Below, in pieces: positions 1 to 45,238 of a stretch of 64,000 nucleotides of DNA. The notes under the pieces were generated by a model, which worked only from the letters and a program-made list of their open reading frames with translations, did no database searches and was not told where the DNA came from. The first letter of the stretch is position 1. The number at the start of each line of letters is the position of its first letter. Source of the DNA: a virus; IMG/VR virus record IMGVR_UViG_3300045988_052724, positions 125,818 through 189,817 of that record; one strand, given 5' to 3'. The position numbers and the translations under genes are program-made.

Positions 1-3000
1 ACCTAAAGCCATCCAATTAATCATAGAGTTAACCGTTTCACAATTGGCTATAGTACAACTTGTTCTAGTGTAATTACCTGCTACACAAACCTTGTCCCAG
101 TTAGTTGCAGTTGTTTTATGTGTTACTTGTACCGATATACAAGCTGTTGGGAATGCAATCGGGAAGGATTTATGTCCCGTAGAATTTGCACCTACATATG
201 CTTCACCCCATTGAATTATAAATCCGTTAGGGAATTTAACATATCCAGAAGCGTCTTTAGAAGCTGCCCAATTTGAGTTCAGTGTAAAGTCTGACAATGC
301 TTTATACCCACCAGCACCAAGTACTACATTATTATTACTACCACCTTTAGTTATATATGAACCATCGTGGTTATGGTTACTGTTTGCTTTAGAGTTAGGG
401 TCAAAGTTCTTGGTATCCCATACTTTTACCCATCCATACCAATTGTCAGTAGTATCTCTTAACGCTCTGTACCACAATCCCATACCAGCAGTCCATCCTC
501 CAGCAATTTCAACCGTACCTCCAGTACTTCTTCCAAATCCTATAACGGATGTATATGTAGTTGGTGCACCATTACTAGTTCCACTAACTGTATTATAGGA
601 GTACACATTACCTAGGTTTTGGGTTCTTCCTGTTTGTGGATTGAGGTTTCCTCTAGAATTTATATAGTTATGTGAATGGTCTGCAGGAGCGCCTCCAATA
701 TCAGCAAAAGACCATGAAACATTGGCAGAACCATTTACTGACTTAGTAGTATTACCAATAGTAAAGTTCCTAGCTGTTCCCCAATAAGAGGTAGTAATAT
801 TTGCAGTACCGTCGAAGTTAGTTCCATTAATAGAGCGGGCTATTGTAAGTCTGTCTGCACTAGCAGCATGATTGGTATAACTTGAATTAGGTCTACTAAC
901 ATTAGTGTTATAATTATTAGCCACAGTGCTTGAATAAGAAGTATTAGTAAACTGACCTGCCGATATACTACCACCATTATTAGTTACTGTATATTCAAGG
1001 CTTATATTAGTCCAATCGCTAGGTTGCCTTACTTGTACCTCCCAACTGTTGTTATTATATCGTACTATCCTAATCATATCCCAAGTACAATAAGGAGGAA
1101 GGTATAGATAACTTTGATTTAACATTGAGTCTGCAGTACCGCTATAAGCATACATTATCGCTTCAAATGGTATATCTATTACGTGCCCTTGATTGTGATT
1201 ACCTGTTATATAGTAGATTGTACCTTTGACTTTACAGCTTTGATATTGCCCTCCACCTGTACAAACATAGGTTACTATCTTCTTCCAGTTCTTGTCTGTA
1301 CCACCTCCCCATCTATCAACCCTGTATTTAGTTGAAGTAGTCCAGCCCATACTGAATGCTGCTTGGTGGTAGCCATCTAATAAATCCGCATTTAAATTAT
1401 TCCATTGTGCTGTACTACTAGATGTCATGTTAGAACCATTCCAAGTAAATCTATAGTTGTTTCCACCTCTCCATGAAGCACCCTGTTGGATAAATGCTAG
1501 TCCAGTTGCTCCGTTTAATCCTTGTAATCCAAGGCAGCCTCCGATATTACAGTCACCGAAACCGCAATCATCTCCAGCATTGTTTCTAGTACCATTAGCT
1601 AGATGTAATGCACCAGTCATAGTATCACCAGTAACATTAACATACCTACCGTCTATAATTCCAGCATAGTTATTAGTATCTAACACTCTATACCATCCAT
1701 AGTTAGTACCCCCTTGTATTCTTCTCCAGTAAATACCATCAGATGTATTTAAAGGGACTGCTATATCAGCGAAATACCCAGAACCATTTCCATGATTCAT
1801 TCTTAATATATGCCACCATTGAGCTGTTGGTCCAACATTCTGATTAGCAGCAGTACCAGCACCTAGATTTGCATTGAAGTAAGTTAATCCATTTAGTCCA
1901 AATGTTAACTGACTATTAGTAGCCAATCTCTTAGACCATTCAGCAGTACCATTTAAAGCACCAGTAAATGTTGGAGCTGTGACTGTGCCAGGGAATATTG
2001 TATTTCCATTAGCATCCAATAATGTTGCTGTCCTCTTTATGGTAGTAAATACGCCCGTGTATTGTCTTACATATATAGGTTCATCTCCATCATCACAAGA
2101 AGCTATCTCCATCCATCCTGCATTACTTGCAGTTCCCCCAAAAGCTATTCTACCATAATCGTTATCCCCACCTTGGAATCTAACTTGCCTAGTTCCAGTA
2201 GTGCTAGCTTGGTTTATTATAATATCTCCGTTCTGGGTTAAGGTTCCATTGTTAGTAATACCAGTAGTGGTAAGTAATGCAGTAAATAAACCTCCACCAA
2301 TAACATGAAGCTTCTGTGTTGGAGTTGTAGTGCCAATTCCTACATTTCCTAATCCAGTTAATACCATTTTAGCACTCATAGCCGGGTCTGTTCCAGCCTC
2401 TCCAACAGAACTCATAAAGGCTAGGTAATTATTATCATTAGTACCACTAAAGTATGGGGTTAATCCAAATTTATCACCAAAGCCATTCTCTTTCCAATAT
2501 ATAGTATTAGCACCCATTCCAAGAGTACCAGTCATGGTATCACCTGCTTTCTTTACGTAACGTCCGTCAGAATAGCTGGCGTAGTTTCCACTATGTATTA
2601 ACACAACCCAATCATTCCACTTTGAATCATCATGCCTTCTGTATTTAATCGTGTTTGTATCATAATGGAAAGCTAACTGAGTATTTCTTGTTGGAACGTC
2701 ACCTAGACTTAGCACAGTAGTATTTGCAGATAGGGTAACATCATCCGTAGGTTTAGGGTCAATAGTAACTACGTTTCCATTTCCAAAATATTGGTTTACA
2801 GTAGTGTATCTACCTCTAAGCCAAGAACGCATAACACCCTCTCTTCCACTAAATCCTGCCAAATGTACTCCATCAAGCAAATCTGCATTTAAATTATTAA
2901 CAAGCGTATTGCTTGAAACTATCAACGGTGATAACCCTGTGGCAACAGTTGACATAAACCTAGGTGCTCTCACATCATTTGGAGTGACACGTAAAACTAG

Positions 3001-5436
3001 CTTGTTGTTATGGTCTACGACACCAAATCCTGCACTATCCGTACTACCTCCTCTAAGGTTTCCTATATACCAGTATGTGTCATACCAGTTGAACCTTAAT
3101 CCGTTTCTTATAGAAGTTAACCCACCATCATCGTTCCTGATAACTTCGTTATCTTTATAGATATTGGTAATATCACAATTTTCCAATCCCTTGAATACGA
3201 TTGAGCTGGAAGTAGATGCGGATGTAAGTGTTCCAGTCATAGTATCGCCAGTCTTCTTAAGGTAACGTCCATCGAGAGTTCCTGCATAATTAGTAACATC
3301 TAATATATCTACCCAAGAACCATAGGAAGTAGAATCATTACCTGTACGATACTTTAGCCCACGTATGCCTTTTGTTGGTAATGCAAGTTGTGTAACCCAG
3401 GTCTTGTTTCCTACAATTCCCATATTAGAACCACCCCAGTTCATAGATATGATATGCCACCAGTTGCCGTTTATACCTGACTTTGTAGTCATTCCCATGT
3501 AATAACCATCGTAAGTGGCTGGGTCAAAGTCTTCTTCCTTGTAGAATATAAAGCTTTTAGCGTGTAACCCATCAAGTAAATCAGCGTTAAGATTACTTAC
3601 TAAGGTATTACTAGCTACAACTAATGGTGCAGTTCCACTAGCTACTGTAGATATGATAGGAGTTGTAAACGTCTTGCTACCATTAATAGTCTGTTCAGTA
3701 TCTAATGTTACATATATAGGGTGTGTATGGTCTGTTGTTGATACTTTTTTACCATCACTATATAGACAGTTATCAGCACCAACGTATACGTATCTATTAC
3801 TGTATGTTTGAGGACTTTCAGTCTGTGATTCTGCTCCGATTAAGAATAACTTTGTGTTTATTAAATCAGTAGCTCCAGCTGTATTTACAGTATCATTTCC
3901 AGGGTCTGCAGCTAAAGTTAAATTACCTTGGTTATCTGGAGTAATAAACATATTGTCTCCAGCAATGAAATTTACTTTCTTAGCTTCATAGCCATCAAAC
4001 GATGTAAACTCGACTCCCTTTACTTGGAATGATAATGCATGATTCAATCTATCAGGTTTATTGGCCCATGTAGGTGTGCCAGACTCATTGATTACTAGCA
4101 TTTGCCCTACTGAACCGTTTGGTAGACCTTTTATCAACTTACCCGTTATACTATCAAACACTGCCAGTTGTCCTATTGTAGAGGATGAAGGTCCACTAAC
4201 AACTCCAGTAGTATTAGTCTGAACATATGTCCACTTCTTAGAAACCTCTTCCCAGTTAGTACCATCAGAAGCAGCAGTAGCTTCCTTACATATAAGTAAG
4301 TCACCAACCTCTACCGACACTCCGTTTATATACCCCACACTATCCCTATAAGCACCATTACCAAAGGTTACAACATAAGTATTACCTACATCTGCCATTG
4401 GTGTATAAGTACCTGGAGAAGATATACCAGCCTCTAATGCTCCCTTAAATAGCATAGCATTATTAGAGCCGAGGATACTATCAGCATAACTCTTAGCAGT
4501 TTCTATAGCGTTCCATACCATTAATGGGGATGCTGCAATAGCTGCAACTACGTTAGTGTCATTTATATTCTCATTATCACTTGATGGGTCCGGCTTTCTA
4601 CTTAATATGTCCTGCAGTTTTACGTGACCATATAATTTAGTAGAAGCACCACCATATTCTGGTTTTAGAGATAAGTGAATCTTAGGAGTAGCTTGTCCTT
4701 CTACATCTCCCTTTAGCTTACCAATAATATAACCATCTAATACAGAAACGTCTCCATGATTAACTGTTACTGCTCCATCGGAAGTCATTCCTCCTGCTAT
4801 AGTTATTCTCTGTGTAGCATCATTAAATGTCAAACCATTAGCCTTTCTAACTTGAGATGTGTCCATATTATTATTAGCTTCATTATAGGATAATAATACG
4901 TTCCTCTCAGCCATCTGATTAGATGGAGCTACCTGTTCAACATAGTCCCTAATCTCAATATTATGATTCTCTGCAAATGTTATATGTCCTGTAGCATCTA
5001 CTATAAAGTTTGGAACAACAAACACACTAGCATTTCCTAGATTAGTTGATTGTCCATAAGAGCCTGAAGCTACACCGCTCTCCATGTGTAATAACTTCCT
5101 ATTAGAAGCATCCCACTTCAAAGGAGGTTCAGTATCCACTCTATTAAGTGCATTACTGCTGATAATAATTCTATTACCATCACCTTTTCTAAGGCTAATA
5201 CTGTCACCTGTAGGAGTTAGCAGGAAGAAGCTATTTCCTATTTGAACCTTAACAGAGCCGCTAACTTCTGATACTTCTATACTTGGATAGCCAATACTAA
5301 AGTAAGTACCACAAGTCCACATCTCTCTAGTATCCTCAATGAACACTACTGGATTAAGCCCTTCTGGTATTGTGGGTATTAGTGGCTCAAACTCTTCTTT
5401 CTTTCTAGCATATACAATCTTCTTATTTATTATCAT
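1..5436 (-). CDS. Large tail fiber / receptor-binding protein; C-terminal end runs off the left window edge (1812 codons in window)
   Basis: ATG at 5436-5434 (ATGATAATAAATAAG). Hand translation of the minus strand stays open to base 1 (ends ...NSMINWMALG). It is missing from the ORF track only because no stop lies in the window. Repeated modules GDTMTG(T/A)L and SNTLV(S/N)NLNADLLDG(L/V/Y)H are typical of phage fibers. Confidence 0.8.
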   Translation of the reverse strand, partial: MIINKKIVYARKKEEFEPLIPTIPEGLNPVVFIEDTREMWTCGTYFSIGYPSIEVSEVSGSVKVQIGNSFFLLTPTGDSISLRKGDGNRIIISSNALNRVDTEPPLKWDASNRKLLHMESGVASGSYGQSTNLGNASVFVVPNFIVDATGHITFAENHNIEIRDYVEQVAPSNQMAERNVLLSYNEANNNMDTSQVRKANGLTFNDATQRITIAGGMTSDGAVTVNHGDVSVLDGYIIGKLKGDVEGQATPKIHLSLKPEYGGASTKLYGHVKLQDILSRKPDPSSDNENINDTNVVAAIAASPLMVWNAIETAKSYADSILGSNNAMLFKGALEAGISSPGTYTPMADVGNTYVVTFGNGAYRDSVGYINGVSVEVGDLLICKEATAASDGTNWEEVSKKWTYVQTNTTGVVSGPSSSTIGQLAVFDSITGKLIKGLPNGSVGQMLVINESGTPTWANKPDRLNHALSFQVKGVEFTSFDGYEAKKVNFIAGDNMFITPDNQGNLTLAADPGNDTVNTAGATDLINTKLFLIGAESQTESPQTYSNRYVYVGADNCLYSDGKKVSTTDHTHPIYVTLDTEQTINGSKTFTTPIISTVASGTAPLVVASNTLVSNLNADLLDGLHAKSFIFYKEEDFDPATYDGYYMGMTTKSGINGNWWHIISMNWGGSNMGIVGNKTWVTQLALPTKGIRGLKYRTGNDSTSYGSWVDILDVTNYAGTLDGRYLKKTGDTMTGTLTSASTSSSIVFKGLENCDITNIYKDNEVIRNDDGGLTSIRNGLRFNWYDTYWYIGNLRGGSTDSAGFGVVDHNNKLVLRVTPNDVRAPRFMSTVATGLSPLIVSSNTLVNNLNADLLDGVHLAGFSGREGVMRSWLRGRYTTVNQYFGNGNVVTIDPKPTDDVTLSANTTVLSLGDVPTRNTQLAFHYDTNTIKYRRHDDSKWNDWVVLIHSGNYASYSDGRYVKKAGDTMTGTLGMGANTIYWKENGFGDKFGLTPYFSGTNDNNYLAFMSSVGEAGTDPAMSAKMVLTGLGNVGIGTTTPTQKLHVIGGGLFTALLTTTGITNNGTLTQNGDIIINQASTTGTRQVRFQGGDNDYGRIAFGGTASNAGWMEIASCDDGDEPIYVRQYTGVFTTIKRTATLLDANGNTIFPGTVTAPTFTGALNGTAEWSKRLATNSQLTFGLNGLTYFNANLGAGTAANQNVGPTAQWWHILRMNHGNGSGYFADIAVPLNTSDGIYWRRIQGGTNYGWYRVLDTNNYAGIIDGRYVNVTGDTMTGALHLANGTRNNAGDDCGFGDCNIGGCLGLQGLNGATGLAFIQQGASWRGGNNYRFTWNGSNMTSSSTAQWNNLNADLLDGYHQAAFSMGWTTSTKYRVDRWGGGTDKNWKKIVTYVCTGGGQYQSCKVKGTIYYITGNHNQGHVIDIPFEAIMYAYSGTADSMLNQSYLYLPPYCTWDMIRIVRYNNNSWEVQVRQPSDWTNISLEYTVTNNGGSISAGQFTNTSYSSTVANNYNTNVSRPNSSYTNHAASADRLTIARSINGTNFDGTANITTSYWGTARNFTIGNTTKSVNGSANVSWSFADIGGAPADHSHNYINSRGNLNPQTGRTQNLGNVYSYNTVSGTSNGAPTTYTSVIGFGRSTGGTVEIAGGWTAGMGLWYRALRDTTDNWYGWVKVWDTKNFDPNSKANSNHNHDGSYITKGGSNNNVVLGAGGYKALSDFTLNSNWAASKDASGYVKFPNGFIIQWGEAYVGANSTGHKSFPIAFPTACISVQVTHKTTATNWDKVCVAGNYTRTSCTIANCETVNSMINWMALG

Positions 5437-5438
5437 TC

Positions 5439-5813
5439 CTATATGATTTGAGTTGTTAATAATTCATCAAACCTCTGAGCTGTTTGAGCAACAGTTAGAC
5501 CTTTATCTATAAAGTTACCTGACCACCCAATAAGTAAGTCAGTACCGTCTAGTACTGGATTATTCTTAATAGCCTTCTTATTTACAGTCTTATTGCCCAG
5601 GTTCTCGATTTCTTTTTGCATATTATCAAGCTTCTCTTGAATCTTATTCACAATGTCGATAATCTCTTTATTATCAAGGAATACAACCCATTGTTCCCCA
5701 TCAAATAAGAGCATCTTACTGTTATCTTTAATCCAAATGTGGTAAATGGTTGGAGGGATTTGGTCACCCCTCCAGAAATTTACCTGCTTGTTATTTACCA
5801 TTTCATTTGCCAT
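5439..5813 (-). CDS. Hypothetical protein, 124 aa, between two fiber genes (possible fiber adaptor/assembly factor)
   Basis: ORF track. Its stop lies 2 nt before the start of the downstream fiber gene. Confidence 0.5.
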   Translation of the reverse strand: MANEMVNNKQVNFWRGDQIPPTIYHIWIKDNSKMLLFDGEQWVVFLDNKEIIDIVNKIQEKLDNMQKEIENLGNKTVNKKAIKNNPVLDGTDLLIGWSGNFIDKGLTVAQTAQRFDELLTTQII

Positions 5814-32238: not shown

Positions 32239-32446
32239 AATTCAAAATTTTATAATTAATACGTTATTTCTTCCTTATTGTTTGGTAATACAAAGATAAT
32301 ACATTCTAAATAGATTACCTAATGAGTTATACTTAAATATACTTAATATAGGCGAACTCAATTACTAGGTACTCCAAAAATACGCCCCTCCCCATTGAGG
32401 TGACCAGTCAATAAATATTTGAGTTTTATTGGTAGATAATTGTTAG

Positions 32447-32470
32447 ATTTGCAATTCGCGAATTGCAAAT
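32447..32470. promoter_or_regulatory. Perfect 24-bp palindrome in the divergent control region (candidate operator)
   Basis: atttgcaattcg|cgaattgcaaat, an exact reverse complement. Confidence 0.5.
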
Positions 32471-32595
32471 TCTTTAGTCTGAGTTTGTCATGGGATATGT
32501 GAGTAGGAGCTATGTTGTGAGAGGGAGGGTAGTGTACTACAAAACGCCCCCTCTGGGTTGCTCAAGAAAAATTGAATTAAAATTGAAGTTGCCGA

Positions 32596-32675
32596 TGCAC
32601 TATTACTAATATATTTCATCAGTCTTTGCTTGAATTGTTGAACTTAAAACCTTGCGGTGTAGAGGCTAACCGCAA
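32596..32675 (+). promoter_or_regulatory. Promoter/leader cassette copy A (conserved TTGAATTGTTGAACTT box plus leader hairpin ttgcggt/accgcaa)
   Basis: Shares boxes and the CGGT...ACCG leader hairpin with copies at 32811-32885 and 33225-33301. Confidence 0.45.
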
Positions 32676-32682
32676 TACAGTC

Positions 32683-32763
32683 ATGCAAACTACATACGTT
32701 TTATTCAATGGCGTTTTGGTTACTTTACAAGAGTACAAAGAAATGATTGCAGAGCAACAATAG
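32683..32763 (+). CDS. Microprotein, 26 aa (MQTTYVLFNGVLVTLQEYKEMIAEQQ)
   Basis: Has its own leader and terminator. Paralog of the 25-aa ORF at 32896. Confidence 0.45.
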   Translation: MQTTYVLFNGVLVTLQEYKEMIAEQQ

Positions 32764-32776
32764 TGCTCTGCTTTCA

Positions 32777-32810
32777 AAAGGAGATTGTCTCCCTTTAATT
32801 CTTTTCTTTT
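32777..32810 (+). terminator. Intrinsic terminator
   Basis: ggaga-ttg-tctcc hairpin followed by a T-rich tract. Confidence 0.5.
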
Positions 32811-32885
32811 ATATACTATTACTTGTTATATATCTTCATTATGGTTTTGATTATTAACTTAGGCTTTGCGGTTGTGTGTAACCGT
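32811..32885 (+). promoter_or_regulatory. Promoter/leader cassette copy B
   Basis: ATATACTATTACTT box, TTGATTATTAACTT box, leader hairpin gcggtt/aaccgt. Confidence 0.45.
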
Positions 32886-32895
32886 TATCAGAATT

Positions 32896-32973
32896 ATGAA
32901 TACGACATACGTTCTTTATTGTGGTGCATTGATTACTTTAGCTGAATACAAAGCAATCATCGCTGAACAGTAG
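32896..32973 (+). CDS. Microprotein, 25 aa (MNTTYVLYCGALITLAEYKAIIAEQ)
   Basis: Paralog of the 32683 ORF (TTYVL....L.TL.EYK..IAEQ conserved). Confidence 0.45.
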   Translation: MNTTYVLYCGALITLAEYKAIIAEQ

Positions 32974-32980
32974 CATTAAT

Positions 32981-33007
32981 GGGAGTGGCGACACTCCCTT
33001 ATTTTTT
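32981..33007 (+). terminator. Strong intrinsic terminator
   Basis: gggagtg-GCGA-cactccc followed by ttatttttt. Confidence 0.7.
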
Positions 33008-33028
33008 CTAATCATTAATACTTATCTT

Positions 33029-33202
33029 ATGAATACGTTAACAGACAAGGAACTTAATGACTTACTATCATTAATGGTTATGGTTGGGCAACAACCATCT
33101 ATTAAAGCTTATGACCTTCTTGACCCATATTATGGAAAGGTCTCTCAGGAGGTGTGGGAACATGCTAACACTCTCATTCAGTTAAGACTAAGACAGGGTT
33201 AA
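33029..33202 (+). CDS. Hypothetical protein, 57 aa
   Basis: Hand translation MNTLTDKELNDLLSLMVMVGQQ.... Followed by a terminator hairpin. Confidence 0.4.
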   Translation: MNTLTDKELNDLLSLMVMVGQQPSIKAYDLLDPYYGKVSQEVWEHANTLIQLRLRQG

Positions 33203-33219
33203 TCCCTGTTTTAGTTTTT
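33193..33219 (+). terminator. Intrinsic terminator
   Basis: acaggg-ttaat-ccctgt followed by a T-run. Confidence 0.55.
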
Positions 33220-33224
33220 GAATA

Positions 33225-33301
33225 ATATACTATTACTTAATTAATATCTTCAGAATATCCTTGAATTATTAACTTTCCCTTTTACGGTGTGGGTAAAACC
33301 G
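33225..33301 (+). promoter_or_regulatory. Promoter/leader cassette copy C
   Basis: ATATACTATTACTT, TTGAATTATTAACTT, leader hairpin acggt/accgt. Ends 10 nt before the ATG at 33312. Confidence 0.45.
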
Positions 33302-33311
33302 TTAGAAGCAT

Positions 33312-35190: not shown

Positions 35191-35321
35191 TATATACCTT
35201 TATTTATTGTAATGCAGCATATAGATGTATTAACACCTATATAGAGTTCAAAGCCTCTACAAATGCAGATGACAATAACTAATTCTAAAGACCTCACACT
35301 GATTAGGTAAGTGTAAAGATT

Positions 35322-35522
35322 ATGAATCCATTAAATATTCAATCGGGTTGGTGGGTATCTACAGATGAAAGATTTGTGCGTTGTTATAACACTAGAGAAG
35401 AGGCAATCTCTCATGTGAAATATCAACAAGATGTAATGCATTCAACAGCAAACTGGCGTGTGCAACACATTAAAATCACATTTGAAGAACAGGAAAGTTT
35501 CATCTACAATCCCACAAAATGA
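35322..35522 (+). CDS. Hypothetical protein, 66 aa
   Basis: ORF track. Confidence 0.4.
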   Translation: MNPLNIQSGWWVSTDERFVRCYNTREEAISHVKYQQDVMHSTANWRVQHIKITFEEQESFIYNPTK

Positions 35523-35728
35523 TAATTCATATTGATAAAGAGGAAGTAACTATTTTAGAGATTAAGATAGTTACTCTTGGAGAGAAGGACACTCATGCAT
35601 ATAATTATAGAAAGGATAAGAAGTGGATAAAGTTCTGTAGGGAACATAACTTCCATCCACACAAGGACTATAATACAAAAATATATGACCTATATCTAAG
35701 GTTATGTGCAGAGGGTATAATTAACTAA
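35519..35728 (+). CDS. Hypothetical protein, 69 aa
   Basis: ORF track, ATGA overlap. Confidence 0.4.
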   Translation: MIIHIDKEEVTILEIKIVTLGEKDTHAYNYRKDKKWIKFCREHNFHPHKDYNTKIYDLYLRLCAEGIIN

Positions 35729-35760: not shown

Positions 35761-36147
35761 ATGAAATTATTTTATTTGCCTGATACTAAGGCAATAGTTG
35801 CAAAGTACAACAACAAGTTTGTCTCATTGCCCAACGCAGAAGAGATAGAGAAACCTGCTAAGCTCATCCCTTGTCAGCCATTCTTAAAGGAGTCTAAAAC
35901 CTCTAAATGGAATGACATTCCAGATGACGATGATGCGTTCTATGCTCATTTAAGACACTATAATGCTGCATGCCCATCTAATTGGAGACCTGGTATTATT
36001 AAAGTTCACAAGATTGTGTTGACTATAATATATACTACTAATGAGGTGGGAGAACCTTGGTTCCAGCTATCTGGCAACGTTCCTCACTATGTATTAAATG
36101 GAATTGCTAATGTTCTAAAAGAAGAATATTATGATTCTATTAAATAA
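35761..36147 (+). CDS. Hypothetical protein, 128 aa
   Basis: ORF track. One of the few genes with a GGAGG motif upstream. Confidence 0.5.
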   Translation: MKLFYLPDTKAIVAKYNNKFVSLPNAEEIEKPAKLIPCQPFLKESKTSKWNDIPDDDDAFYAHLRHYNAACPSNWRPGIIKVHKIVLTIIYTTNEVGEPWFQLSGNVPHYVLNGIANVLKEEYYDSIK

Positions 36148-36207
36148 GTAGTATTATTTACCTTTGACAACTAATAAAATAAGTAACAATTTAAATAACT
36201 AATCGAC

Positions 36208-37017
36208 ATGAAAGTAATCAAAACTAATATTAAGGCTGAAACTGTAGAAATCAATCCTAGAGAAGCTGAAGCTCTCAGAAACACATTCCAGGACAATAGA
36301 CGTACTTATAACGATAATATACGCAAGTATGCCAAACAGATGAAAGATGGGAAGTGGAGACTAAACGGTGAACCAATCATCGTTGATGATCAGGGATGTT
36401 GTGTGAATGGCTACCATAGGCTTTCTGCCTGCATTGAAGCAGGAGTTCCATTTAGAACTTTATTAGTAACTGGAGTACCTCACGAGACTTGGACTACAGT
36501 AGATACTGGCAAGGTTCGTAGTGCTGGAGATGTCTTCCAGATAGATGGAATTAAGAATGGCATTGCTAAGGCTACTTTAGTTGCTAAGTTCTCTGCCCTA
36601 GTTCAAGGACTGAATGGTATTGCTGATACTGGTAGTTTGCACAGACTTCGTAGTTCAAGTATTACTCGCGAAGACCTGTTAAAGTTATATAGAGAGCACG
36701 AGGAGGACTTTGATAAAGTAATTAGCCTTATTGGTAAGTATTCTGCTACTTTGAAAGGTATAATTACTCCATCTATGCTCGGAGGTATAATTGCTTATCT
36801 GTACATACAAAAAGGCTATAAGTTCTCAAAGCTGGAAGAGTTTGTAGACAGACTAGCTACAAGTGGATTAAGTATCTATGCTACTGGAAGGATGAAACTT
36901 AAGAGTTGTAGAGGATTTGATAAGCAGAAAGCTATATGTGATATATGGAATAAGTTCAAGACCAACAAGGAGAAAGTAAGAATATGTATCACCTATGTGT
37001 CTGGAACATTTGAATAA
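36208..37017 (+). CDS. ParB N-terminal-domain-like (sulfiredoxin/ParB nuclease fold) protein, 269 aa
   Basis: PIIVDDQGCCVNGYHRLSACIEAGVPF resembles the ParB-like DG.HR..A motif. Confidence 0.45.
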   Translation: MKVIKTNIKAETVEINPREAEALRNTFQDNRRTYNDNIRKYAKQMKDGKWRLNGEPIIVDDQGCCVNGYHRLSACIEAGVPFRTLLVTGVPHETWTTVDTGKVRSAGDVFQIDGIKNGIAKATLVAKFSALVQGLNGIADTGSLHRLRSSSITREDLLKLYREHEEDFDKVISLIGKYSATLKGIITPSMLGGIIAYLYIQKGYKFSKLEEFVDRLATSGLSIYATGRMKLKSCRGFDKQKAICDIWNKFKTNKEKVRICITYVSGTFE

Positions 37018-37019
37018 AC

Positions 37020-37755
37020 CTACGTAATGGGTGCTAGTTTAATAGCTAGCACCGCTCACCCATAATTAAGGCAGGTTCTCCGTGAGGAGAATAAGTGAAA
37101 GCACAAGTGTAACATCTAAAAGCTTAGATAGTTAATTACTGTGAGTTGAGTAACCCAAGACCTGTGCTCACTTGGTATAAGAAGAAGCGTTTAATAGTGT
37201 ACATAAAAGCGTGGATACTCAGAGCACCAAGTATGGTTGTAGGTAAAAATTAAAAAACTCAATAACTTCCCAAGACATTGAGGGCACCAGTTTCTTTATT
37301 ATAAAATGTAAGCAAACTATTCCAACTAGAATGTGAGTTGCGACTTATAAAGTTTTAGGTGTAAAATGCATTTGTGTATTCTTGATTTAAGATTTAACTT
37401 GGTAAATTCCGAGACCATAATGGGTACGCCCTGAGACTAATGCAGAGCATCTCTTATACCAAACAGTATGACCTTGATACTGGAGAGATGTCTTATCGAG
37501 AGATAAGGCAAAGTATCGTGAGATTGCACTGGCAATCAAAGACAGTCATGCGCACCTTAATAACAGCGGTTATTAAAGAGACTGTAGGCACAGGAAGGTC
37601 TTGCGTTCCATAAATTAAAATTTTATATATAGGTAGATATTTCTACTATACCCCGTGATGGGGTCGGCATCATGACTAAGCCTTTACGTGGCGATGCTAT
37701 AAGTAAGCTATAAGCTGAAACTAATTAGTCATAACTAATTAAAACTAATCGCAAT
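37020..37755 (+). ncRNA. About 730-nt ORF-free, hairpin-dense region; candidate large structured RNA
   Basis: No ORF of 60 aa or more on either strand. Many local helices capped by GNRA loops: ttctcc-GTGA-ggagaa, cttatc-GAGA-gataag, cccc-GTGA-tgggg, taataac-AGCG-gttatta. Nested long-range pairs such as acagtc/gactgt. Confidence 0.5.
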
Positions 37756-38019
37756 ATGAAGTATTATGCATTTATGCCATTTTGGCATTGGTCTGAAGTT
37801 ATGGATGAAAGACCAAAAGATAGTGACTTTGTTCTCGGAAATATAGTCAGAACTACTGATTCATTGGTAGCTCTTAGTTTATATTCAGAGACAAGATGCC
37901 CTGCATCTCAACTAGTTGAGGCTAATAGTGAAGAAGAGCTTGAAGCCAAAATAGAAGAGATGAAACAGAACTTTAAGAACAATGATTGGTTGGAGGCAAA
38001 TCTCTACCCTTGTCTGTAG
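37756..38019 (+). CDS. Hypothetical protein, 87 aa
   Basis: ORF track. Preceded by the AACTAATCG motif. Confidence 0.45.
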   Translation: MKYYAFMPFWHWSEVMDERPKDSDFVLGNIVRTTDSLVALSLYSETRCPASQLVEANSEEELEAKIEEMKQNFKNNDWLEANLYPCL

Positions 38020-38143
38020 TTTCCATATTTGTAAAAACTTAGTTTGAACACTAGTTTCCTATGAAAAGAGTAATCATGTGCTAGCCCTGTGAAACATGAC
38101 ATAGGTTTTAAGTGTTCTTTTAACAATTAAAACTAATCGTAAT

Positions 38144-38443
38144 ATGAAGATTGAAAAGAACAAATTGGTGAATCGTGCACAAGTGTTAAACAAAGACATT
38201 CAGCTGGGAATTATTGCATACTCTGTAGCTGAAATGGCATCTATTGCTGCTCAGAGTCTAGAGAAACGAAATGCAGGTAAAATTACAGAGGAAGAAGATA
38301 AAGCTGTCTTTAAGGACTGCAAGGAGTATATTCGCTCAGCAAAAGAGTTCTGTGACGAGAATGGCCTTGACTGGTCTGTATGTATCCTACTGTCTCGTTC
38401 CTCACTTAAACAGTACACAGATGTGGAAAGCAAGAACGACTAA
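38144..38443 (+). CDS. Hypothetical protein, 99 aa
   Basis: ORF track. Preceded by the AACTAATCG motif. Confidence 0.45.
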   Translation: MKIEKNKLVNRAQVLNKDIQLGIIAYSVAEMASIAAQSLEKRNAGKITEEEDKAVFKDCKEYIRSAKEFCDENGLDWSVCILLSRSSLKQYTDVESKND

Positions 38444-38570
38444 AACAATATTCCTGCTATTAGCAGGATATTTAGGACTACAATGTATCAGAGCATCCTT
38501 ATGGATTCCTCTGATATTATGCATATTATTATTTACTTTTATTATTCAACTTAAAAACAAAGAATTATGA
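38421..38570 (+). CDS. Small membrane protein, 49 aa
   Basis: Internal ATG of the 38271 ORF. Sequence MWKARTTKTIFLLLAGYLGLQ...LILCILLFTFII is hydrophobic. ATGA-coupled to the next gene. Confidence 0.35.
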   Translation: MWKARTTKTIFLLLAGYLGLQCIRASLWIPLILCILLFTFIIQLKNKEL

Positions 38571-39004
38571 GAAAGATTAACGCAATCCTGAGCAACTCAA
38601 CTAAAGAACAGTATCCAGTATTAATAAACAAACTATCTGACATTATTGAACCCTTCGCTCTACGTGCTGTAGGCTTACCTCCAGTATATGTTGGGCTTGA
38701 AGTTGAGCAACTTACAGTTAAGCAGAGCGGAGAGAGTGTTTATGTATTTGGCATTAATGGTAAGGATGTTGCCCATGTTGATACTGAGAAGGCAGAAGCA
38801 TCTGTGTTTGGAGGTAAAACATTCGCCATCTCCGCTGAGGATGTTAAGTCCGTAACTAATACACTAACAGCATTACATAACTGTAAAGAAGAGGATGATG
38901 AAGACCCTCTTGAGGGAATTCTTGAGAATATACCTAGAGAACTCAAACCTCTTCTTGGGGCAGCTATCATAGCATCTAAACTCCGCAAGGGAGGAAACAA
39001 CTAA
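38567..39004 (+). CDS. Hypothetical protein, 145 aa
   Basis: ORF track. Confidence 0.45.
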   Translation: MRKINAILSNSTKEQYPVLINKLSDIIEPFALRAVGLPPVYVGLEVEQLTVKQSGESVYVFGINGKDVAHVDTEKAEASVFGGKTFAISAEDVKSVTNTLTALHNCKEEDDEDPLEGILENIPRELKPLLGAAIIASKLRKGGNN

Positions 39005-39087
39005 AGAAGGTTTTTGAAGACAAATATCAAGGGGTTAGTCCACTGTGAAGTGAGCTAGCTCCGCCAACTTTTAAAGCTAATAATGAA

Positions 39088-39288
39088 ATGGATATACTGA
39101 AGCAATTAGAAGAAGGCAAACCTTTCTCTGGTAGAAATGGTGCTTTTACTGGAAGAGTTGAACCGCAATCAATAAGTGGAGATACTCTGAATGTCATATG
39201 TGATAAGGATGGCACAAGATGGCATGAGAATTGGGAATTACAGCATGTTATTTGGGCATTTGAATGTGGAGATTATTACTTCTTATGA
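39088..39288 (+). CDS. Hypothetical protein, 66 aa
   Basis: ORF track. Confidence 0.4.
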   Translation: MDILKQLEEGKPFSGRNGAFTGRVEPQSISGDTLNVICDKDGTRWHENWELQHVIWAFECGDYYFL

Positions 39289-39686
39289 TTAAGTGTGATA
39301 TATCTAAATGCCATGCGAGTTGTTGTTATAACGCTCCATTGCCTAAGAAATACATATTTGCATTAAAGAATAGGATTGTTACTCCAGTTAAGGAGATTCT
39401 CGTTATTGATGATGAGAATATGAAAGGTGAGGTAATGTGTTATCCAATCACAGACCATAACCCTGATAAGAACAAATGTCCATTCTTAACTGAGAATTGT
39501 AGATGTAATATTTATGATAGAAGACCACCAATATGTAAGAAGTTTGGTAATGGTACTGAACCATTATTGACTTGCTCATTCTTAGTTCCAGAAGAACAAA
39601 GAGAGTCTGTATTGGCTGGATATAAATCTGCTATCAATAAACTAACATCTCCAGCTGCTTGGGAACTTGCTAAAAAGTATAAATAA
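39264..39686 (+). CDS. Zinc/iron-chelating CxxCxxCC-type (YkgJ/UPF0153-like) protein
   Basis: KCHASCCYN ... CPFLTENCRCNIYDRRPPICKKF. Confidence 0.5.
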   Translation: MWRLLLLMIKCDISKCHASCCYNAPLPKKYIFALKNRIVTPVKEILVIDDENMKGEVMCYPITDHNPDKNKCPFLTENCRCNIYDRRPPICKKFGNGTEPLLTCSFLVPEEQRESVLAGYKSAINKLTSPAAWELAKKYK

Positions 39687-39687
39687 T

Positions 39688-40050
39688 ATGCCAAAGGATT
39701 ACGCTCTAAGAAAGTTACACTCTAAAGAAGAGAAAATCATCTTCTGTGGATGCGATGCTATAAGCGGTTTATTAATGCATTACCTACTTGATGAATTGTT
39801 TGGTAGAGGTGAATACAAGATATTACACCACTACGATTTACGATTACAGAAAGAATGGGAATGGACTATTGATGAACCAATACCTGACAAAGATATTATT
39901 AAGGAATGGTTCTTCTGTGAACCTGAGAGGATAATAACTACTTGTTGGGATTACGAGAGAACTCTCAAAGCTGTAGAAGATGCACAGATTAGCAATGTGC
40001 GTGTCTATGAGTTTTGTAAGTATAAACACATAACTGACTTACCGTTCTAA
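39688..40050 (+). CDS. Hypothetical protein (ATG at 39688 preferred)
   Basis: ORF track 39667-40050 with the first in-frame ATG. Confidence 0.4.
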   Translation: MPKDYALRKLHSKEEKIIFCGCDAISGLLMHYLLDELFGRGEYKILHHYDLRLQKEWEWTIDEPIPDKDIIKEWFFCEPERIITTCWDYERTLKAVEDAQISNVRVYEFCKYKHITDLPF

Positions 40051-40271
40051 TGTTAGTACCTCTAAGTACCCAAATAGTTGCTGATGACCCTATAGAGGAA
40101 CGTCAGATAGCTAAGGAGAAATACTCATCGTACAAACGACCAGGAGTTGAACCAATTACTATAGTTAAGACATATGTAAAAGGTAACATACGATATTGGG
40201 AAGAGTGTACACCTAGTGGTATAATAGTTAGAATTAGTAGTAGAGAAATAACTCATAGTGCAGGAGTATAA
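40050..40271 (+). CDS. Hypothetical protein, 73 aa
   Basis: ORF track. Confidence 0.4.
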   Translation: MLVPLSTQIVADDPIEERQIAKEKYSSYKRPGVEPITIVKTYVKGNIRYWEECTPSGIIVRISSREITHSAGV

Positions 40272-40282
40272 CTGCACTAACT

Positions 40283-40818
40283 GGGCTTGCATGGTTTTGA
40301 CAGGCGATTACAAGTTATAAGGACGTGTAGAGTTCGTACCAACTCTTATAAAATGATACACAATTTTAAGTGGCAACACTGAAGTAAGAATGGCAGCTTA
40401 AGCTGTGGCTTATTAATATTAACGTATTAGTATAGTCGGGTTAACGGAGAAGACCTAGAAACAGAAGAGGTGTGGGAAGAAGCATATAGGGCAGCCCACT
40501 TAACTTGAACGCCAAAGGTTAGTAGAGCTGAGATTCTCCACAATGTGTATGGTAGAGACGCAAGGGCTATGCCTAAAAGTACTACTCGTTCTCCAACGTA
40601 AATGGAGTGGTGGAGAGCCGACTTCGGTCAGCCCAGGTTTGGTAGTTTGTAAATTAGCTTTAAGTGTACTGACTTCATCTATGATAAGTCTGGTTCTGAG
40701 TAAGACTAATAAAACTATCTACATGCTAGAACTCACTAGCTGATGTAATAAAAATGAGACACACGTTATCCTTGTAATAAGGGTTGTTTGGACGGCGGTT
40801 CGACTCCGCCCAAGTCCA
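40283..40818 (+). ncRNA. ssrA: tmRNA (SsrA), unusually long at about 536 nt
   Basis: The 5' strand GGGCTTG pairs with CAAGTCC at 40811-40817, giving a G3:U70 wobble (Ala identity). T-arm ggcgg-TTCGACT-ccgcc. GGTTTTGACAGG resembles the conserved GGATTCGACGGG. Candidate tag ORF GGC AAC ACT GAA GTA AGA ATG GCA GCT TAA at 40372-40401 encodes (A)GNTEVRMAA and starts about 90 nt from the 5' end. Confidence 0.75.
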
Positions 40819-40851
40819 CAAACATTATGTTTAACTAATCGACAATTTGAA

Positions 40852-41379
40852 ATGGAACAGAAAAAGAAACGAAATTACGGTAAGATGACAGCTGAAGAGT
40901 TGTCAGCTGCTGTAAATCTAGTGAAGTCTGAGAACTCTGGAGTATTCGGAGTTAAGGACATTAGAAGTGCATTTAAAGACCTAGGTGTGCCCATGTATAG
41001 CGAGTTTGCTACAACATTGGTTCAACAAGGTGTTCTCGTACAGGCAGGACTGACATATCAAGATGGATTTAGTTGGTCTAGTACAGAGCCTATTCATATA
41101 AATAAGGTAGTAGAGCTTATGACTATTACTCGTAAGAAAGTAGCTGCACAGGCAAGAAAGTATAGTCAAAAGAAGAAAGCTATACAACAAGGTACATGGG
41201 TTGAACAACCTAAAGAAACTACAGAGATTGAACAGGTACTTGAAGAAGTTCCAGTTCATGAACGTAAAGAGCTTGTACCAGTTGATAAGGCTATTAATAA
41301 GGCTATTAAATTATTAACCGAGAATGGTTATAGAGTCTCTAGACCAGTCTTAATATACGAAGAAGTAACAGTGAAATAA
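40852..41379 (+). CDS. Hypothetical protein, 175 aa
   Basis: ORF track. AACTAATCG motif upstream. Confidence 0.45.
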   Translation: MEQKKKRNYGKMTAEELSAAVNLVKSENSGVFGVKDIRSAFKDLGVPMYSEFATTLVQQGVLVQAGLTYQDGFSWSSTEPIHINKVVELMTITRKKVAAQARKYSQKKKAIQQGTWVEQPKETTEIEQVLEEVPVHERKELVPVDKAINKAIKLLTENGYRVSRPVLIYEEVTVK

Positions 41380-41380
41380 T

Positions 41381-41632
41381 ATGAGAAGAGTATATATTCA
41401 AATTATTGACCCGATTAATGGTACATATATAAATGCACGCCATGAATACCTCAATGCACATATGCAAGTCGTAGAGTCTACTCTAAGACAGTATGGCATA
41501 CGTAGCTCAGATTGTACACTTAAAACTGTGTCTAATATCGGTAAGGAGGTTCCTGGAATGCCCAAATACTCATTGTATCAAGGGTTGGTAAATGATACTT
41601 CCAAACTAGTAAATATAACTGTTGTAGGATAA
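41381..41632 (+). CDS. Hypothetical protein, 83 aa
   Basis: ORF track. Confidence 0.4.
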   Translation: MRRVYIQIIDPINGTYINARHEYLNAHMQVVESTLRQYGIRSSDCTLKTVSNIGKEVPGMPKYSLYQGLVNDTSKLVNITVVG

Positions 41633-41952
41633 CTCCTACTGCGAAACACGAAACTGACCTGATGAGTTAGGCTACATAGTGCGCACTATGTGGTTGACTT
41701 AAACGTGTATAAATAAAAGTTGGAACCTATTACGTATAGATTGTATTCTGCCCTCTGCGGGTGGATGAGGTGCAACTCCTCAATGTAATATATAAGGAGA
41801 GAATCCTTATATCTCTTGTAGTATCTATGTATAACTTGATTAATAGTCAGCATAACAAGAGTAGGTCGTCAGTGAAATTATTAAAAGATAGATTATGTAG
41901 GTAAAGTACGCTATATAATTATCTTATTTATGTATAAATAAGATATAAAACA
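41633..41952 (+). ncRNA. 320-nt ORF-free structured leader upstream of the TROVE-like gene
   Basis: Hairpins acatagtg-cg-cactatgt, tgagg-tgcaact-cctca, taagga-gagaa-tcctta. Contains cacgaaactgacctgatgagtt. Confidence 0.35.
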
Positions 41953-43755
41953 ATGGAATTTAGTAAGAAAAAGAAAAGTCTTTTTAAGACTGAAACTCCA
42001 ACGCAGGAGAACAACTTTGTGAAGGAGGGATTGAAGCTATCGGCTGAAACTGTGAGTGGAAACGGTGCTAAGAAGTATAGCACCAGTAACGATGCATTCG
42101 TAGACAACTTCTCAATGATTGCAAACTTTAAGGCACCTCGTGATTATGCTGAGGTATCTAAAGATATGTATAAATTGTGGAGTATTAATCCGAAGAAGTG
42201 TCTGCAACTCGCTGTATATATTCGGTTGATTACTCGTGAGACTCAGATTGTTCTTCCTAATGAAACTATCACTCTGGATGTTCAGAGAGGACAAGGCTTA
42301 AAGAATGAAGGTATTATGCGTATGCTATGGTTAGCTATGCATCACAAACCTACATTCATGGCTAACATGCCTTATTTCATCGCTGCTGGTAGTTGGAAGG
42401 ATGTATTTGAAATGATGAGCCTTGATTTACAATATCATGGCTGGGAAGGAAGGAAGTTGGATTGGAATTTCATGCGTAAGGTTATCTTAGCTGGATTAGC
42501 TAATGGTCATACAAGTGAATTGGTAAAGAAATACCTGCCAACTATTCGTTCAATGAAAGAATGTAAAACTGTTGAATCACAAGCTCGTACTATTATCGGT
42601 CAGTATCTTGCTTCTTGCATCTATGGTAAAAAGAAAGACAAGAAGGCAGATAAAGAGACTGCGGATAGCCGTGCTGCACAACGTAGATACAGGAAACTTA
42701 AACAGAGTGGAACTGCTCATACTTGGCAGCAATTAATAAGTCAGAAGAAGTTGCTCGAACTGGACTTCAATACCATTCATGGACGCGCTCTGAGCCTATT
42801 GGTAGGCTCTAAGTTCTTGAAAAATCAGGGATTAGTAGAGAAGTATTCTAAGTGGATAAGTGGTCGCAAAGTGGCTAAATACACTGGATTTGTGTTCGAG
42901 TTGTTCCAACCGCTTGGTGAAAGCTACCGTACTAATAGGCTTGAAGAGTATAGAGAACAGACTATCAATGCTCAGTTTAATGGGCTAGTTGAGACTGGAA
43001 GACAGAATCTTAACCAGAACAGCAAGCTGTTAGTGGTTAGAGATATTTCTGGTTCTATGACCTCTAAGGCAGTTGGAACCAATATGTCTTCTTATGCTAT
43101 TGGTAAAGCAATGGCATTATATTTCTCTGCTCTGTTGGATGGTCCATTTAAAGATGCCTATGCTACATTTAGTAGTACTTGTAAGCTCTGTACATGGAAG
43201 GGTAAGACTCCTATTGAGAAATGGGCTAACGACACAGATGGTAACTTTGGTAATACCAATTTACTATCTGTGGCAGATATGTTCGTTAAGCTGAGAAGCA
43301 CAATGAAGATTTCTGAGAACGAGTTCCCAACAGGAGCATTGTTGGTTAGTGATGGTGAATTTGATGCAGCTCGTAGTTGGGGTGGCTCAGGTGCATCCGT
43401 TACTAATTTTACTGCATTCAGACAAAGACTACTTAGAGGTGGTTTCAGTAAGGAGTATGTGGATAACTTTAAGTTAATCCTTTGGGATTTACCTAACGGT
43501 TATTATGGTGGAGGTCTTCGTCCTAAGTTTGAAGACTTTGCAGATGCTCCGAACAATTTCTATATCAGTGGCTATGACCCTGCTGCTGTAGCATTTATCT
43601 TGGGAACTAAACCATTCAAGGCTACACCTAAGAATGCAACAGAGTTGTTCAATGCAGCTATGGACCAAGAATTGTTAAATCGCCTTGTTGTGTCTGAACG
43701 AAAGGTGGTCAACAAAACTAAGAAGAATACAAACTTTAAAAAGAATAAGAAATAA
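41953..43755 (+). CDS. DUF2828/TROVE-like domain plus vWA domain protein, 600 aa (Ro60-like architecture)
   Basis: The N-terminal T.SGNGAKKYSTSNDAFVDNF...LW..NP...LQLAVYIRLITR...G.G.K.EG...LWLA pattern matches recalled DUF2828 proteins. vWA MIDAS VVRDISGSMTS lies near residue 362, as in Ro60. Confidence 0.55.
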   Translation: MEFSKKKKSLFKTETPTQENNFVKEGLKLSAETVSGNGAKKYSTSNDAFVDNFSMIANFKAPRDYAEVSKDMYKLWSINPKKCLQLAVYIRLITRETQIVLPNETITLDVQRGQGLKNEGIMRMLWLAMHHKPTFMANMPYFIAAGSWKDVFEMMSLDLQYHGWEGRKLDWNFMRKVILAGLANGHTSELVKKYLPTIRSMKECKTVESQARTIIGQYLASCIYGKKKDKKADKETADSRAAQRRYRKLKQSGTAHTWQQLISQKKLLELDFNTIHGRALSLLVGSKFLKNQGLVEKYSKWISGRKVAKYTGFVFELFQPLGESYRTNRLEEYREQTINAQFNGLVETGRQNLNQNSKLLVVRDISGSMTSKAVGTNMSSYAIGKAMALYFSALLDGPFKDAYATFSSTCKLCTWKGKTPIEKWANDTDGNFGNTNLLSVADMFVKLRSTMKISENEFPTGALLVSDGEFDAARSWGGSGASVTNFTAFRQRLLRGGFSKEYVDNFKLILWDLPNGYYGGGLRPKFEDFADAPNNFYISGYDPAAVAFILGTKPFKATPKNATELFNAAMDQELLNRLVVSERKVVNKTKKNTNFKKNKK

Positions 43756-45114: not shown

Positions 45115-45208
45115 AAGGGGATACGCAAATGGTAAAGCGGCAGTCATTAGGGACTGTGGTATAATATTCTAGGTGTATACATTGAGGGTTCGATTCCCTC
45201 TCTCCTTA
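45115..45208 (+). tRNA. Class II tRNA-like gene (long variable arm), irregular anticodon loop (6 or 8 nt, contains TAG/TTA); possibly Leu-derived or a pseudogene
   Basis: Acceptor aagggga/tctcctt, T gaggg-TTCGATT-ccctc, variable arm gtata...tatac, anticodon arm cagtc-attagg-gactg. Confidence 0.4.
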
Positions 45209-45238
45209 CAATTCTTTGTAAAAATTACATTTGTCAGC

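Follow-up and report, generated by a model that had tools for sequence, protein, structure and literature searches.

Large structured non-coding RNAs with both variable and conserved parts are known from phages, e.g. GOLLD (RF01998) and ROOL (RF03087), which lie near tRNAs. Orphan structured RNAs such as RAGATH-14 (RF03145) and RAGATH-34 (RF03103) are likewise found in phages, near self-cleaving ribozymes and tRNAs. Here we compare these families with a 736-nt region, free of open reading frames (ORFs), of the IMG/VR virus record IMGVR_UViG_3300045988_052724. The 64,000-nt stretch of that record that was analysed (positions 125,818 to 189,817) is called the window; coordinates refer to it unless a locus handle precedes them, and the region is considered on the + strand. 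On balance, sequence comparison favours reading the region as a co-transcribed tandem array of independently folding + strand RNA modules, which we call A, B and the two-domain C, in the genome of a distant crAss-like phage. Phages of the crAss-like group rank with the most abundant viruses in the human gut.

An earlier reading of the sequence (the original prediction) had compared the region with GOLLD and ROOL and suggested a scan with the GOLLD, ROOL, HEARO and large-subunit (LSU) rRNA models. We searched Rfam 15 at the gathering threshold over the whole window, and at E ≤ 10 over 36900-37900 and over a compact homologue (L147:5850-6340); the RNA islands of two further loci, L048 and L003, were also searched. 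The suggested models, LSU rRNA included, find no match in either the window or the compact homologue, even at E ≤ 10. No other Rfam 15 family matches the modules of the region at E ≤ 10 beyond chance level (CRISPR-DR37 at 18 bits, snoRNAs), and the conserved strings turned up in no paper of the library that was searched. What stands of the comparison is that the region is structured, conserved, non-coding and located near tRNAs in a phage. The idea of a single carried unit does not stand: whereas GOLLD and ROOL have one conserved multi-domain architecture, the modules of the region can be separated, and phages differ in which of them they have and in what order.

Modules B and C share their islands with RAGATH-14 and RAGATH-34, and are RAGATH-type orphan RNAs in the sense of an operational class, not of a homologous family. 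The RAGATH families of Rfam 15 have no similarity to A, B or C, by sequence or by covariance model (CM). Unlike them, B joins an invariant core to a hypervariable cassette, and C, which contains a pseudoknot, is built of two domains and associated with suppressor tRNAs. The hatchet ribozyme (RF02678) resembles B in its layout, i.e. a 5′ hairpin, a long hairpin, a conserved (asymmetric) internal loop and a variable distal stem. It also resembles B in its neighbourhood, with true hatchets 1-2 kb from B in the crAss-like phages cr6_1, cr109_1 and cr53_1. However, the conserved nucleotides are entirely different, the helices of B are invariant in sequence and B has an extra long-range pair between the P1 loop and the P1-P2 linker.

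The put RNAs of HK022 are cis-acting processive antiterminators that form two adjacent stem-loops in an early phage operon and act independently of the downstream gene. In function B or the C 3′ domain might be comparable; the sequences are unrelated, and neither the hosts (Bacteroidota) nor the polymerases are the same. Orphan structured RNAs in phage islands are a known kind, while the A, B and C families themselves look new. The new points are the families, the invariant-core and hypervariable-cassette design of B and the link between C and suppressor tRNAs. Adding these three recurrent, uncatalogued modules to RNA family databases would improve phage annotation.

Conserved and separable modules

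The region (37018-37755) is bounded by the TAA stop codon of an ORF at 36208-37017 (+) and the ATG of an ORF at 37756-38019 (+). As predicted it holds no protein-coding ORF: with the standard code none exceeds 57 aa anywhere in the interval. A recoded protein gene, which the original prediction had named among the results that would speak against it, was not recovered when TAG or TGA was read as sense, the longest ORF then being just 78 aa, on the - strand. Frames in the region open only under reassignment of TAA, an unknown recoding.

The minimum free energy (MFE) of the + strand is -202 kcal/mol, compared with -168.5 ± 3.9 for dinucleotide shuffles (z = -8.65; 0/20 shuffles as good). The corresponding z for the - strand is -5.1, so folding is strand-asymmetric. 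The hairpins listed in the original prediction are all present, namely TTCTCC-GTGA-GGAGAA (37079-37094), CTTATC-GAGA-GATAAG (37493-37508), TTAATAAC-AGCG-GTTATTAA (37557-37576) and CCCC-GTGAT-GGGG (37651-37663). The long-range complementarity that it described is real as well, and the pairing covaries among homologues; helices of B, of the C 5′ domain and of the C 3′ domain all do so.

Architectures were counted in 159 retrieved loci. The order A-B-C occurs in eight of these and B-C in a further eight; C precedes B, with 0.7-1.4 kb between them, in seven, and stands alone in seven. A is followed by an unrelated module of ~150 nt, D, and then by C2 (the C 3′ domain) in six loci and directly by C2 in two. 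B alone accounts for 103. The spacing from B to C ranges from 40 nt to ~480 nt, the order is reversed in other phages, and in some related phages tRNAs or protein genes separate the modules. For example, locus L048 reads RAGATH-14, tRNA(CUA), C, two small protein genes, B and the next gene. Between genes the modules take up the space that begins at a stop codon or tRNA and ends 27-65 nt ahead of the following ATG.

Since module order and presence vary between phages, the region is a composite and not one fixed large RNA. The single RNA of ~730 nt that had been envisaged does not hold as such, given that the modules are separable and can be reordered, although in every complete locus A is followed by the C 3′ domain. 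Between these two lies nothing, D, B plus the C 5′ domain, or 0.7-0.9 kb, and the smallest form, A plus the C 3′ domain, is ~400 nt. This constant succession means that A to C2 may work as one transcript. Module D is a conserved non-coding block of ~120-260 nt that fills the slot between A and C2 (L126:7905-8060, L057:4839-4956, and L113); it does not occur in the window.

Full-length homologues of the region are 64-99.7% identical to it, the closest being in a 179-kb IMG/VR contig, IMGVR_UViG_3300045988_045527 (99.7% across the region). The conserved block adjoins the stop codon of one gene on its left and stops ~20 nt short of the ATG of another on its right, and both of these genes vary. 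We considered and rejected synteny with a conserved protein gene on the upstream side: the window, cr6_1, cr109_1 and cr53_1 have unrelated proteins there. The portal, tail and terminase genes of the window match phage families, and its terminase is ~30% identical to those of crAss-like phages. A tmRNA, a RAGATH-34 RNA and 33 tRNAs lie 3-25 kb downstream of the region. Large-genome, tRNA-rich ('Zeta') crAss-like phages have been described and the window genome fits among them (PMC10136315). These features of the sequence fit a distant crAss-like phage with a genome of ~180 kb.

The company of the modules is similar in related loci. Their RNA islands hold hatchet, pistol and hammerhead ribozymes, RAGATH-14 and RAGATH-34, tmRNA and tRNAs within 1-3 kb of B or C. 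Such ribozymes are known to cluster together and with phage genes (PMC4604425). There is a hatchet in each of cr6_1 and cr109_1 and two in cr53_1, those in loci L001-L003 scoring 85-95 bits (RF02678), as well as pistol and RAGATH-1 hammerhead ribozymes in related loci. L003 also contains a type III hammerhead below the threshold (42 bits, E = 3e-7). At least some of the unannotated 0.5-2-kb gaps in crAss-like reference genomes are dense islands of structured RNA. One such gap, of 2.2 kb, lies at 816-3057 in L003 (cr53_1, NC_055889.1), where a conserved block (~1130-1373, shared with L079) is followed by B, RAGATH-14, the type III hammerhead, two hatchets and a C-type pseudoknot domain.

Structure and variation of C, B and A

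Module C is represented by 29 distinct full elements of 197-344 nt. Its 5′ domain (37410-37603) is closed by helix P0 (CGAGACC, 37410-37416, with GGTCTTG, 37597-37603), which encloses two conserved junction strands, ATAATGGGTACG (37417-37428) and CACAGGAA (37589-37596); their RNA forms are AUAAUGGGUACG and CACAGGAA. Also within P0 is helix Pa with its variable hairpins (37445-37580). Among 31 distinct contexts P0 takes 20 base-paired sequence versions, and its mean length is 5.2 bp against 3.8 ± 0.2 with shuffled partners (maximum 4.5 in 1,000). The insert of the domain shrinks from ~150 nt to a lone 20-nt hairpin in L079 and L112. A short form of the 5′ junction (GTAATGGGTACGC-hairpin-GCACAGGAAG) was seen at L099:4835, L133:6368 and L049:5875; in L099 and L133 it sits ~100 nt upstream of a tmRNA, and it is not present at the window's own tmRNA.

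An AU-rich linker (37604-37650) joins the two domains. The linker is variable, while its hairpin GGTAGA..TCTACT (37632-37647) covaries, reading GGTGGA/TCCACT in L057 and L117 and GGAGAA/TTTCTC in L126 and L147.

The C 3′ domain (37651-37733) is supported by covariation, and is folded as follows. P1 (37651-37654 with 37660-37663) precedes P2 (GGCATC, 37666-37671, with GATGCT, 37693-37698), which has a bulge on its 5′ side. Within P2 lies P3 (GCC, 37680-37682, with GGC, 37690-37692), capped by the conserved loop TTTACGT (UUYACGU in the family consensus). Next come the junction ATAAGTA (37699-37705), the variable hairpin P4 (37706-37709 with 37713-37716) and the strand GAAACTAAT (37717-37725; GAAA(A)CUAAU in the family). 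Finally, the tail pairs with the P2 bulge as a pseudoknot (ATGACTA, 37672-37678, with TAGTCAT, 37726-37732). P2 occurs in 12 sequence versions and the pseudoknot in at least seven: GACUA/UAGUC, AGAAC/GUUCU, AGAGC/GCUCU, UAAGGC/GCCUUA, AAGGU/ACCUU, AUGAAG/CUUCAU and GUAGCU/AGCUAC.

The three C 3′ types were aligned with an iterated CM that does not include the pseudoknot. With this model we found 76 copies in 82 sources, and exactly one, at 105 bits, in the window. Standard pairs fill 92.0% of the cells of paired columns, as compared with 66.5% for shuffled partners (reached in 0/500) and 30-44% when the partners are slid by 1-3 columns. The covariation score is 0.531, against 0.155 for shuffled (0/500) and 0.04-0.16 for slid partners. 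Double changes occur at 4/7 pairs of the pseudoknot. The stem and pseudoknot cells of the type-2 sequences fell in gaps and were examined solely by segment parsing. Among the distinct helix versions 62 of the 433 base pairs are G.U, and an invariant G.U closes P2; as the opposite strand would have A.C mismatches at these positions, it is the + strand RNA that folds. C offers a defined, covariation-supported pseudoknot fold to work with. The domain is found in the RefSeq phage cr53_1 too, within a 2.2-kb gap that had appeared empty. At least 12 unrelated gene families follow it, their ATG lying 27-65 nt (rarely ~130 nt) beyond the pseudoknot domain.

The original prediction had likened two strings of the region to 23S rRNA, in particular to domain IV (H70-H71). 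No LSU model matches at E ≤ 10 in 36900-37900. The string GGTAAATTCCGAGACC is made up of a linker and helix P0, and P0 reads CCACC, CATC or GGATTAT in homologues. The other, ACCCCGTGA, is the P1 hairpin of the C 3′ domain, for which homologues read CTCCCGTGACGGGAG, GGCACAGCGGTGCC or GGTAGCTTCGGCTACC. Because no LSU model matches and both strings lie in helices of variable sequence, we reject the idea of an rRNA mimic; the resemblance to helix 71 is due to chance and is situated in non-conserved helices.

Module B (37250-37369) has conserved flanks around a variable cassette. It begins with hairpin P1 (CTCAAT, 37258-37263, with ATTGAG, 37277-37282) and includes the long-range pair C37269-G37284. 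A helix (CACC, 37285-37288, with GGTG, 37358-37361) is formed around the invariant internal loop AGTTT/TTTTA; the stem-closed cassette of 56 nt is at 37295-37350, and the 3′ tail reads TAAAATGC. B is found in more than 119 IMG/VR contigs among the matches listed (~100 kb and 150-270 kb) and in 15 GenBank records of crAss-like phages, always in unannotated DNA, in gaps of 0.5-2.2 kb. These include the Suoliviridae phage cr6_1 (96.7% identity over 123 nt), cr109_1 and cr53_1.

In the 103 unique copies of B the flanks are essentially invariant and the middle is a cassette of 23-114 nt, of which there are at least 20 unrelated types. Two alternative contexts are seen upstream and several downstream, and the cassettes combine freely with these. 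What makes B notable is this joining of an invariant core of ~65 nt to a freely exchanged hypervariable hairpin. B is also shared, at 97-100% identity, by phages with terminases of only ~30% identity to one another. At the long-range pair 92 copies have C-G and the other 11 U-A, without exception, and the stem that closes the cassette covaries, e.g. at one pair with A-U in 63 copies, U-A in 15, C-G in one and G.U in one. B is absent from the genomes of 185,579 species save for six contigs of metagenome bins (one of 100 kb, one of 186 kb), which look like mis-binned phage. An origin of B as host sequence or as an attachment site was rejected on these grounds.

Module A (37019-37243) is a multi-helix domain of ~225 nt closed by CCTAC (37019-37023) and GTAGG (37239-37243). 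The junction motif GTAATGGGT (24-32) comes first, then the hairpin GCTAG..CTAGC, and the opening of A shares the junction motif UAAUGGGU with the C 5′ domain. The 5′ and 3′ parts are conserved, whereas the middle hairpins vary and are replaced wholesale in homologues. We found 16 distinct homologues (75-100% identity), all in viral contigs of ~90-190 kb; by sequence, A is confined to the closer relatives of the window. One compensatory change turns GCTAG/CTAGC into GCTGG/CCAGC in L150, but such changes are few and the variation is too low for a firm fold.

Two shorter segments complete the region. The linker between B and C (37370-37409) carries a small local hairpin (TCTTGATTTAAGA) and is conserved solely in the closest relatives. 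The last ~20 nt (37734-37755, AACTAATCGCAAT-ATG) are outside the RNA element and are probably the translation-initiation region of the next gene: the motif AACTAATCG(A)CAAT..ATG also precedes other start codons, at 40834-40853 of the window and in relatives. There is no intrinsic terminator within the region and promoter-like matches are no better than chance.

Several known identities were considered and rejected. The strings GAGACTAAT and TTAGTC recall P7 of group I introns, but the GACTAA/TTAGTC pairing is the local pseudoknot of the small domain; moreover, there is no Intron_gpI match and no P4-P6, and the flanks are a stop codon and the starts of unrelated genes, not exons. A T-box-like tRNA sensor (AAUGGGU compared with UGGN) lacks a specifier-like conserved codon and an Rfam T-box match; the idea lives on only within the speculative readings given below. 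For a riboswitch or gene-specific leader, the genes that follow the C 3′ domain are too diverse and no Rfam riboswitch matches. Lastly, ARAGORN finds no tRNA or tmRNA in 36000-42000 and no model of either kind matches the region.

Possible roles of the modules

We infer from the sequence comparisons that the modules function as RNA, either inside a rightward polycistronic transcript or after excision from it. B and C would be drawn from a shared pool of RNA modules that populates crAss-like RNA islands, with modules gained, lost and reordered by recombination. For the mechanism our preference, a tentative one, is for ribozyme-like or nuclease-directing processing and punctuation. One or more modules would define where adjacent tRNA, tmRNA or mRNA units begin or end; B would be the best candidate for a ribozyme-like or nuclease-directing element, because of its hatchet-like overall layout, and the C 3′ pseudoknot would serve as a structured, protective 5′ leader directly ahead of the gene that follows.

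Several points weigh against this picture. The hatchet model gives no match to B (E ≤ 10), B has no known ribozyme core motif and none of the hatchet, pistol and twister models matches the window itself. To our knowledge, few RAGATH-type candidates have been shown to self-cleave. Invariance of helix sequence, as seen in B, is odd for small ribozymes and better fits recognition of the sequence by a protein or nucleic acid. In addition, three main sequence types carry most of the covariation signal of the C 3′ domain, and few independent lineages are involved. A, B and C are small enough for cleavage assays, structure probing and reporter tests.

It is possible, if rather doubtful, that the modules are instead stable RNAs acting in trans by binding to a protein of the phage or host, as a scaffold, decoy or anti-defence RNA. 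The flanks of B would then be a binding platform and the cassette a fast-diversifying functional or target-facing hairpin. This would account for flanks and helices that stay invariant between phages with such divergent terminases while the cassette is swapped, and for the same cassette in unrelated backbones, e.g. in the window and cr6_1. A 600-aa protein annotated by PHROG as putative RNA-binding is encoded 4 kb downstream in the same island. However, that protein has no relative in the PDB and its AlphaFold2 (AF2) model is unusable, and no protein family is consistently beside B, the best cluster being near it in 51 of 134 loci, a count limited by the extent of the loci.

The position of the C 3′ domain suggests a further, less probable role: this domain, and possibly B, could be cis-regulatory leaders that act on the polymerase or on downstream translation. 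Examples would be a put-like antiterminator that carries transcription through the structure-rich island, or a structured 5′ untranslated region that controls initiation. The domain ends at much the same distance before a start codon whatever gene follows, and such indifference is expected of an element directed at the polymerase or ribosome. Strict sequence conservation would fit binding to conserved machinery, and B consists of two adjacent stem-loops with conserved internal loops that, in crAss-sized phages, lie 1-3 kb downstream of a divergent gene junction. Yet any intergenic element adjoins a start codon in compact phage genomes; the many unrelated downstream families show no ligand-type or gene-specific association, and we detected no downstream terminators in the window that would need to be overridden.

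More speculative are two linked readings, which we think unlikely, of C as a device coupled to suppressor tRNAs and of B as a new class of catalytic or programmable RNA. In seven of the 32 distinct C contexts a tRNA lies 29-53 nt upstream of C and all seven are stop-codon suppressors (five CUA, one UUA and one with an unusual call, in a locus closely related to the UUA case). Suppressors make up 32 of the 211 tRNAs in those loci; kinship among loci inflates the association with C, though two suppressor types are involved. RAGATH-14 is directly upstream of the suppressor tRNA in five loci, and the window has no CUA suppressor. C might act in timing, processing or sensing the suppressor by which crAss-like phages switch to recoded late genes, and its exclusive association with amber and ochre suppressor tRNAs is a handle on the control of stop-codon recoding. 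B could be a hatchet-like self-cleaver with a new core, or a scaffold that displays a hypervariable hairpin under diversifying selection, directed for example against host defence or rival phages.

That A through C2 form one large ornate RNA of the GOLLD or ROOL kind, with optional internal domains and perhaps a higher-order particle, seems to us improbable. The constant pairing of A with the C 3′ domain around variable inserts, the phage setting near tRNAs and a long-range helix that closes the whole-region MFE structure are in keeping with it. By inspection, the conserved ACGUAA of A (37023-37028) is also complementary to the P3 loop UUACGU (37684-37689); these bases are invariant, which puts the proposed contact beyond covariation testing. 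On the other hand, no GOLLD, ROOL or HEARO model matches, and loci that lack A may still have B and C, in either order and with tRNAs or protein genes between them.

An element acting as DNA (a replication origin, or a packaging or recombination site, with repeats as protein-binding or cruciform sites) is most improbable: mosaic junctions at module borders and the invariant B flanks, which could anchor cassette recombination, would suit it, but covariation and the many G.U pairs keep pairing rather than sequence, on one strand, and folding is strand-asymmetric.

Other features of the RNA island and window

The ORF directly downstream of the region (37756-38019, 87 aa) is an insertion that is lacking in most relatives. 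Together with its flank (37762-38120) it is absent from L043, L091, L057, L113 and L060 and present in L117 and L143. In the five loci without it the RNA array adjoins the gene of a 99-aa protein (38144 in the window).

The tmRNA match at 40283-40821 is 539 nt long, against 374 positions in the model, and ARAGORN makes no call there; relatives are 545-568 nt long, which suggests a phage tmRNA with large insertions. The RAGATH-34 copy at 41623-41733 contains, by eye, strings of a hammerhead-type core (CUGAUGAG ... CGAAAC). The gene of the 600-aa putative RNA-binding protein (41953-43755; PHROG 850 'RNA-binding protein', Pfam DUF7788 and a weak DUF2828) begins 220 nt after it, within the RNA island. 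It is conceivable that the protein is a Ro60/TROVE-vWA-like partner of some island RNAs. A firm Ro60-like identity was rejected, as there is no sequence match in the PDB and the single-sequence AF2 model has a pLDDT of 35. Further downstream, ARAGORN reports a 95-nt tRNA at 45115-45209 with the four-base anticodon 'ttag' and no amino acid (38 bits with the Rfam tRNA model); it may be a suppressor of the frameshift or stop-related kind, or an interrupted tRNA.

Upstream of the region, a 356-nt segment at 35291-35646 that covers two small ORFs has 100% identity with contigs from other lineages of phage (L125, and L130 over 296 nt), suggesting very recent horizontal exchange. At the left edge of the window an apparent gap (1-5438) is an artefact. 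It is covered by a - strand ORF (1-5463) that has at least 1,821 codons and runs off the window start, and that is missed by ORF lists in which edge-truncated frames are left out. This truncated giant gene sits upstream of the tail, portal and terminase block.

The original prediction took the region to be the longest coding-free stretch in the window, but the tRNA arrays and a divergent intergenic region of 1.07 kb (32239-33311) exceed it. The latter is 76-86% conserved in relatives and has no Rfam match. It contains several repeated units, namely an AT-rich motif (TATACTATTACTT...ATCTTCA), ATTATTAACTT with a hairpin, and two paralogous mini-ORFs of ~26 codons (32683 and 32896) that are 70% identical to each other; these units may be repeated early promoters and leaders.

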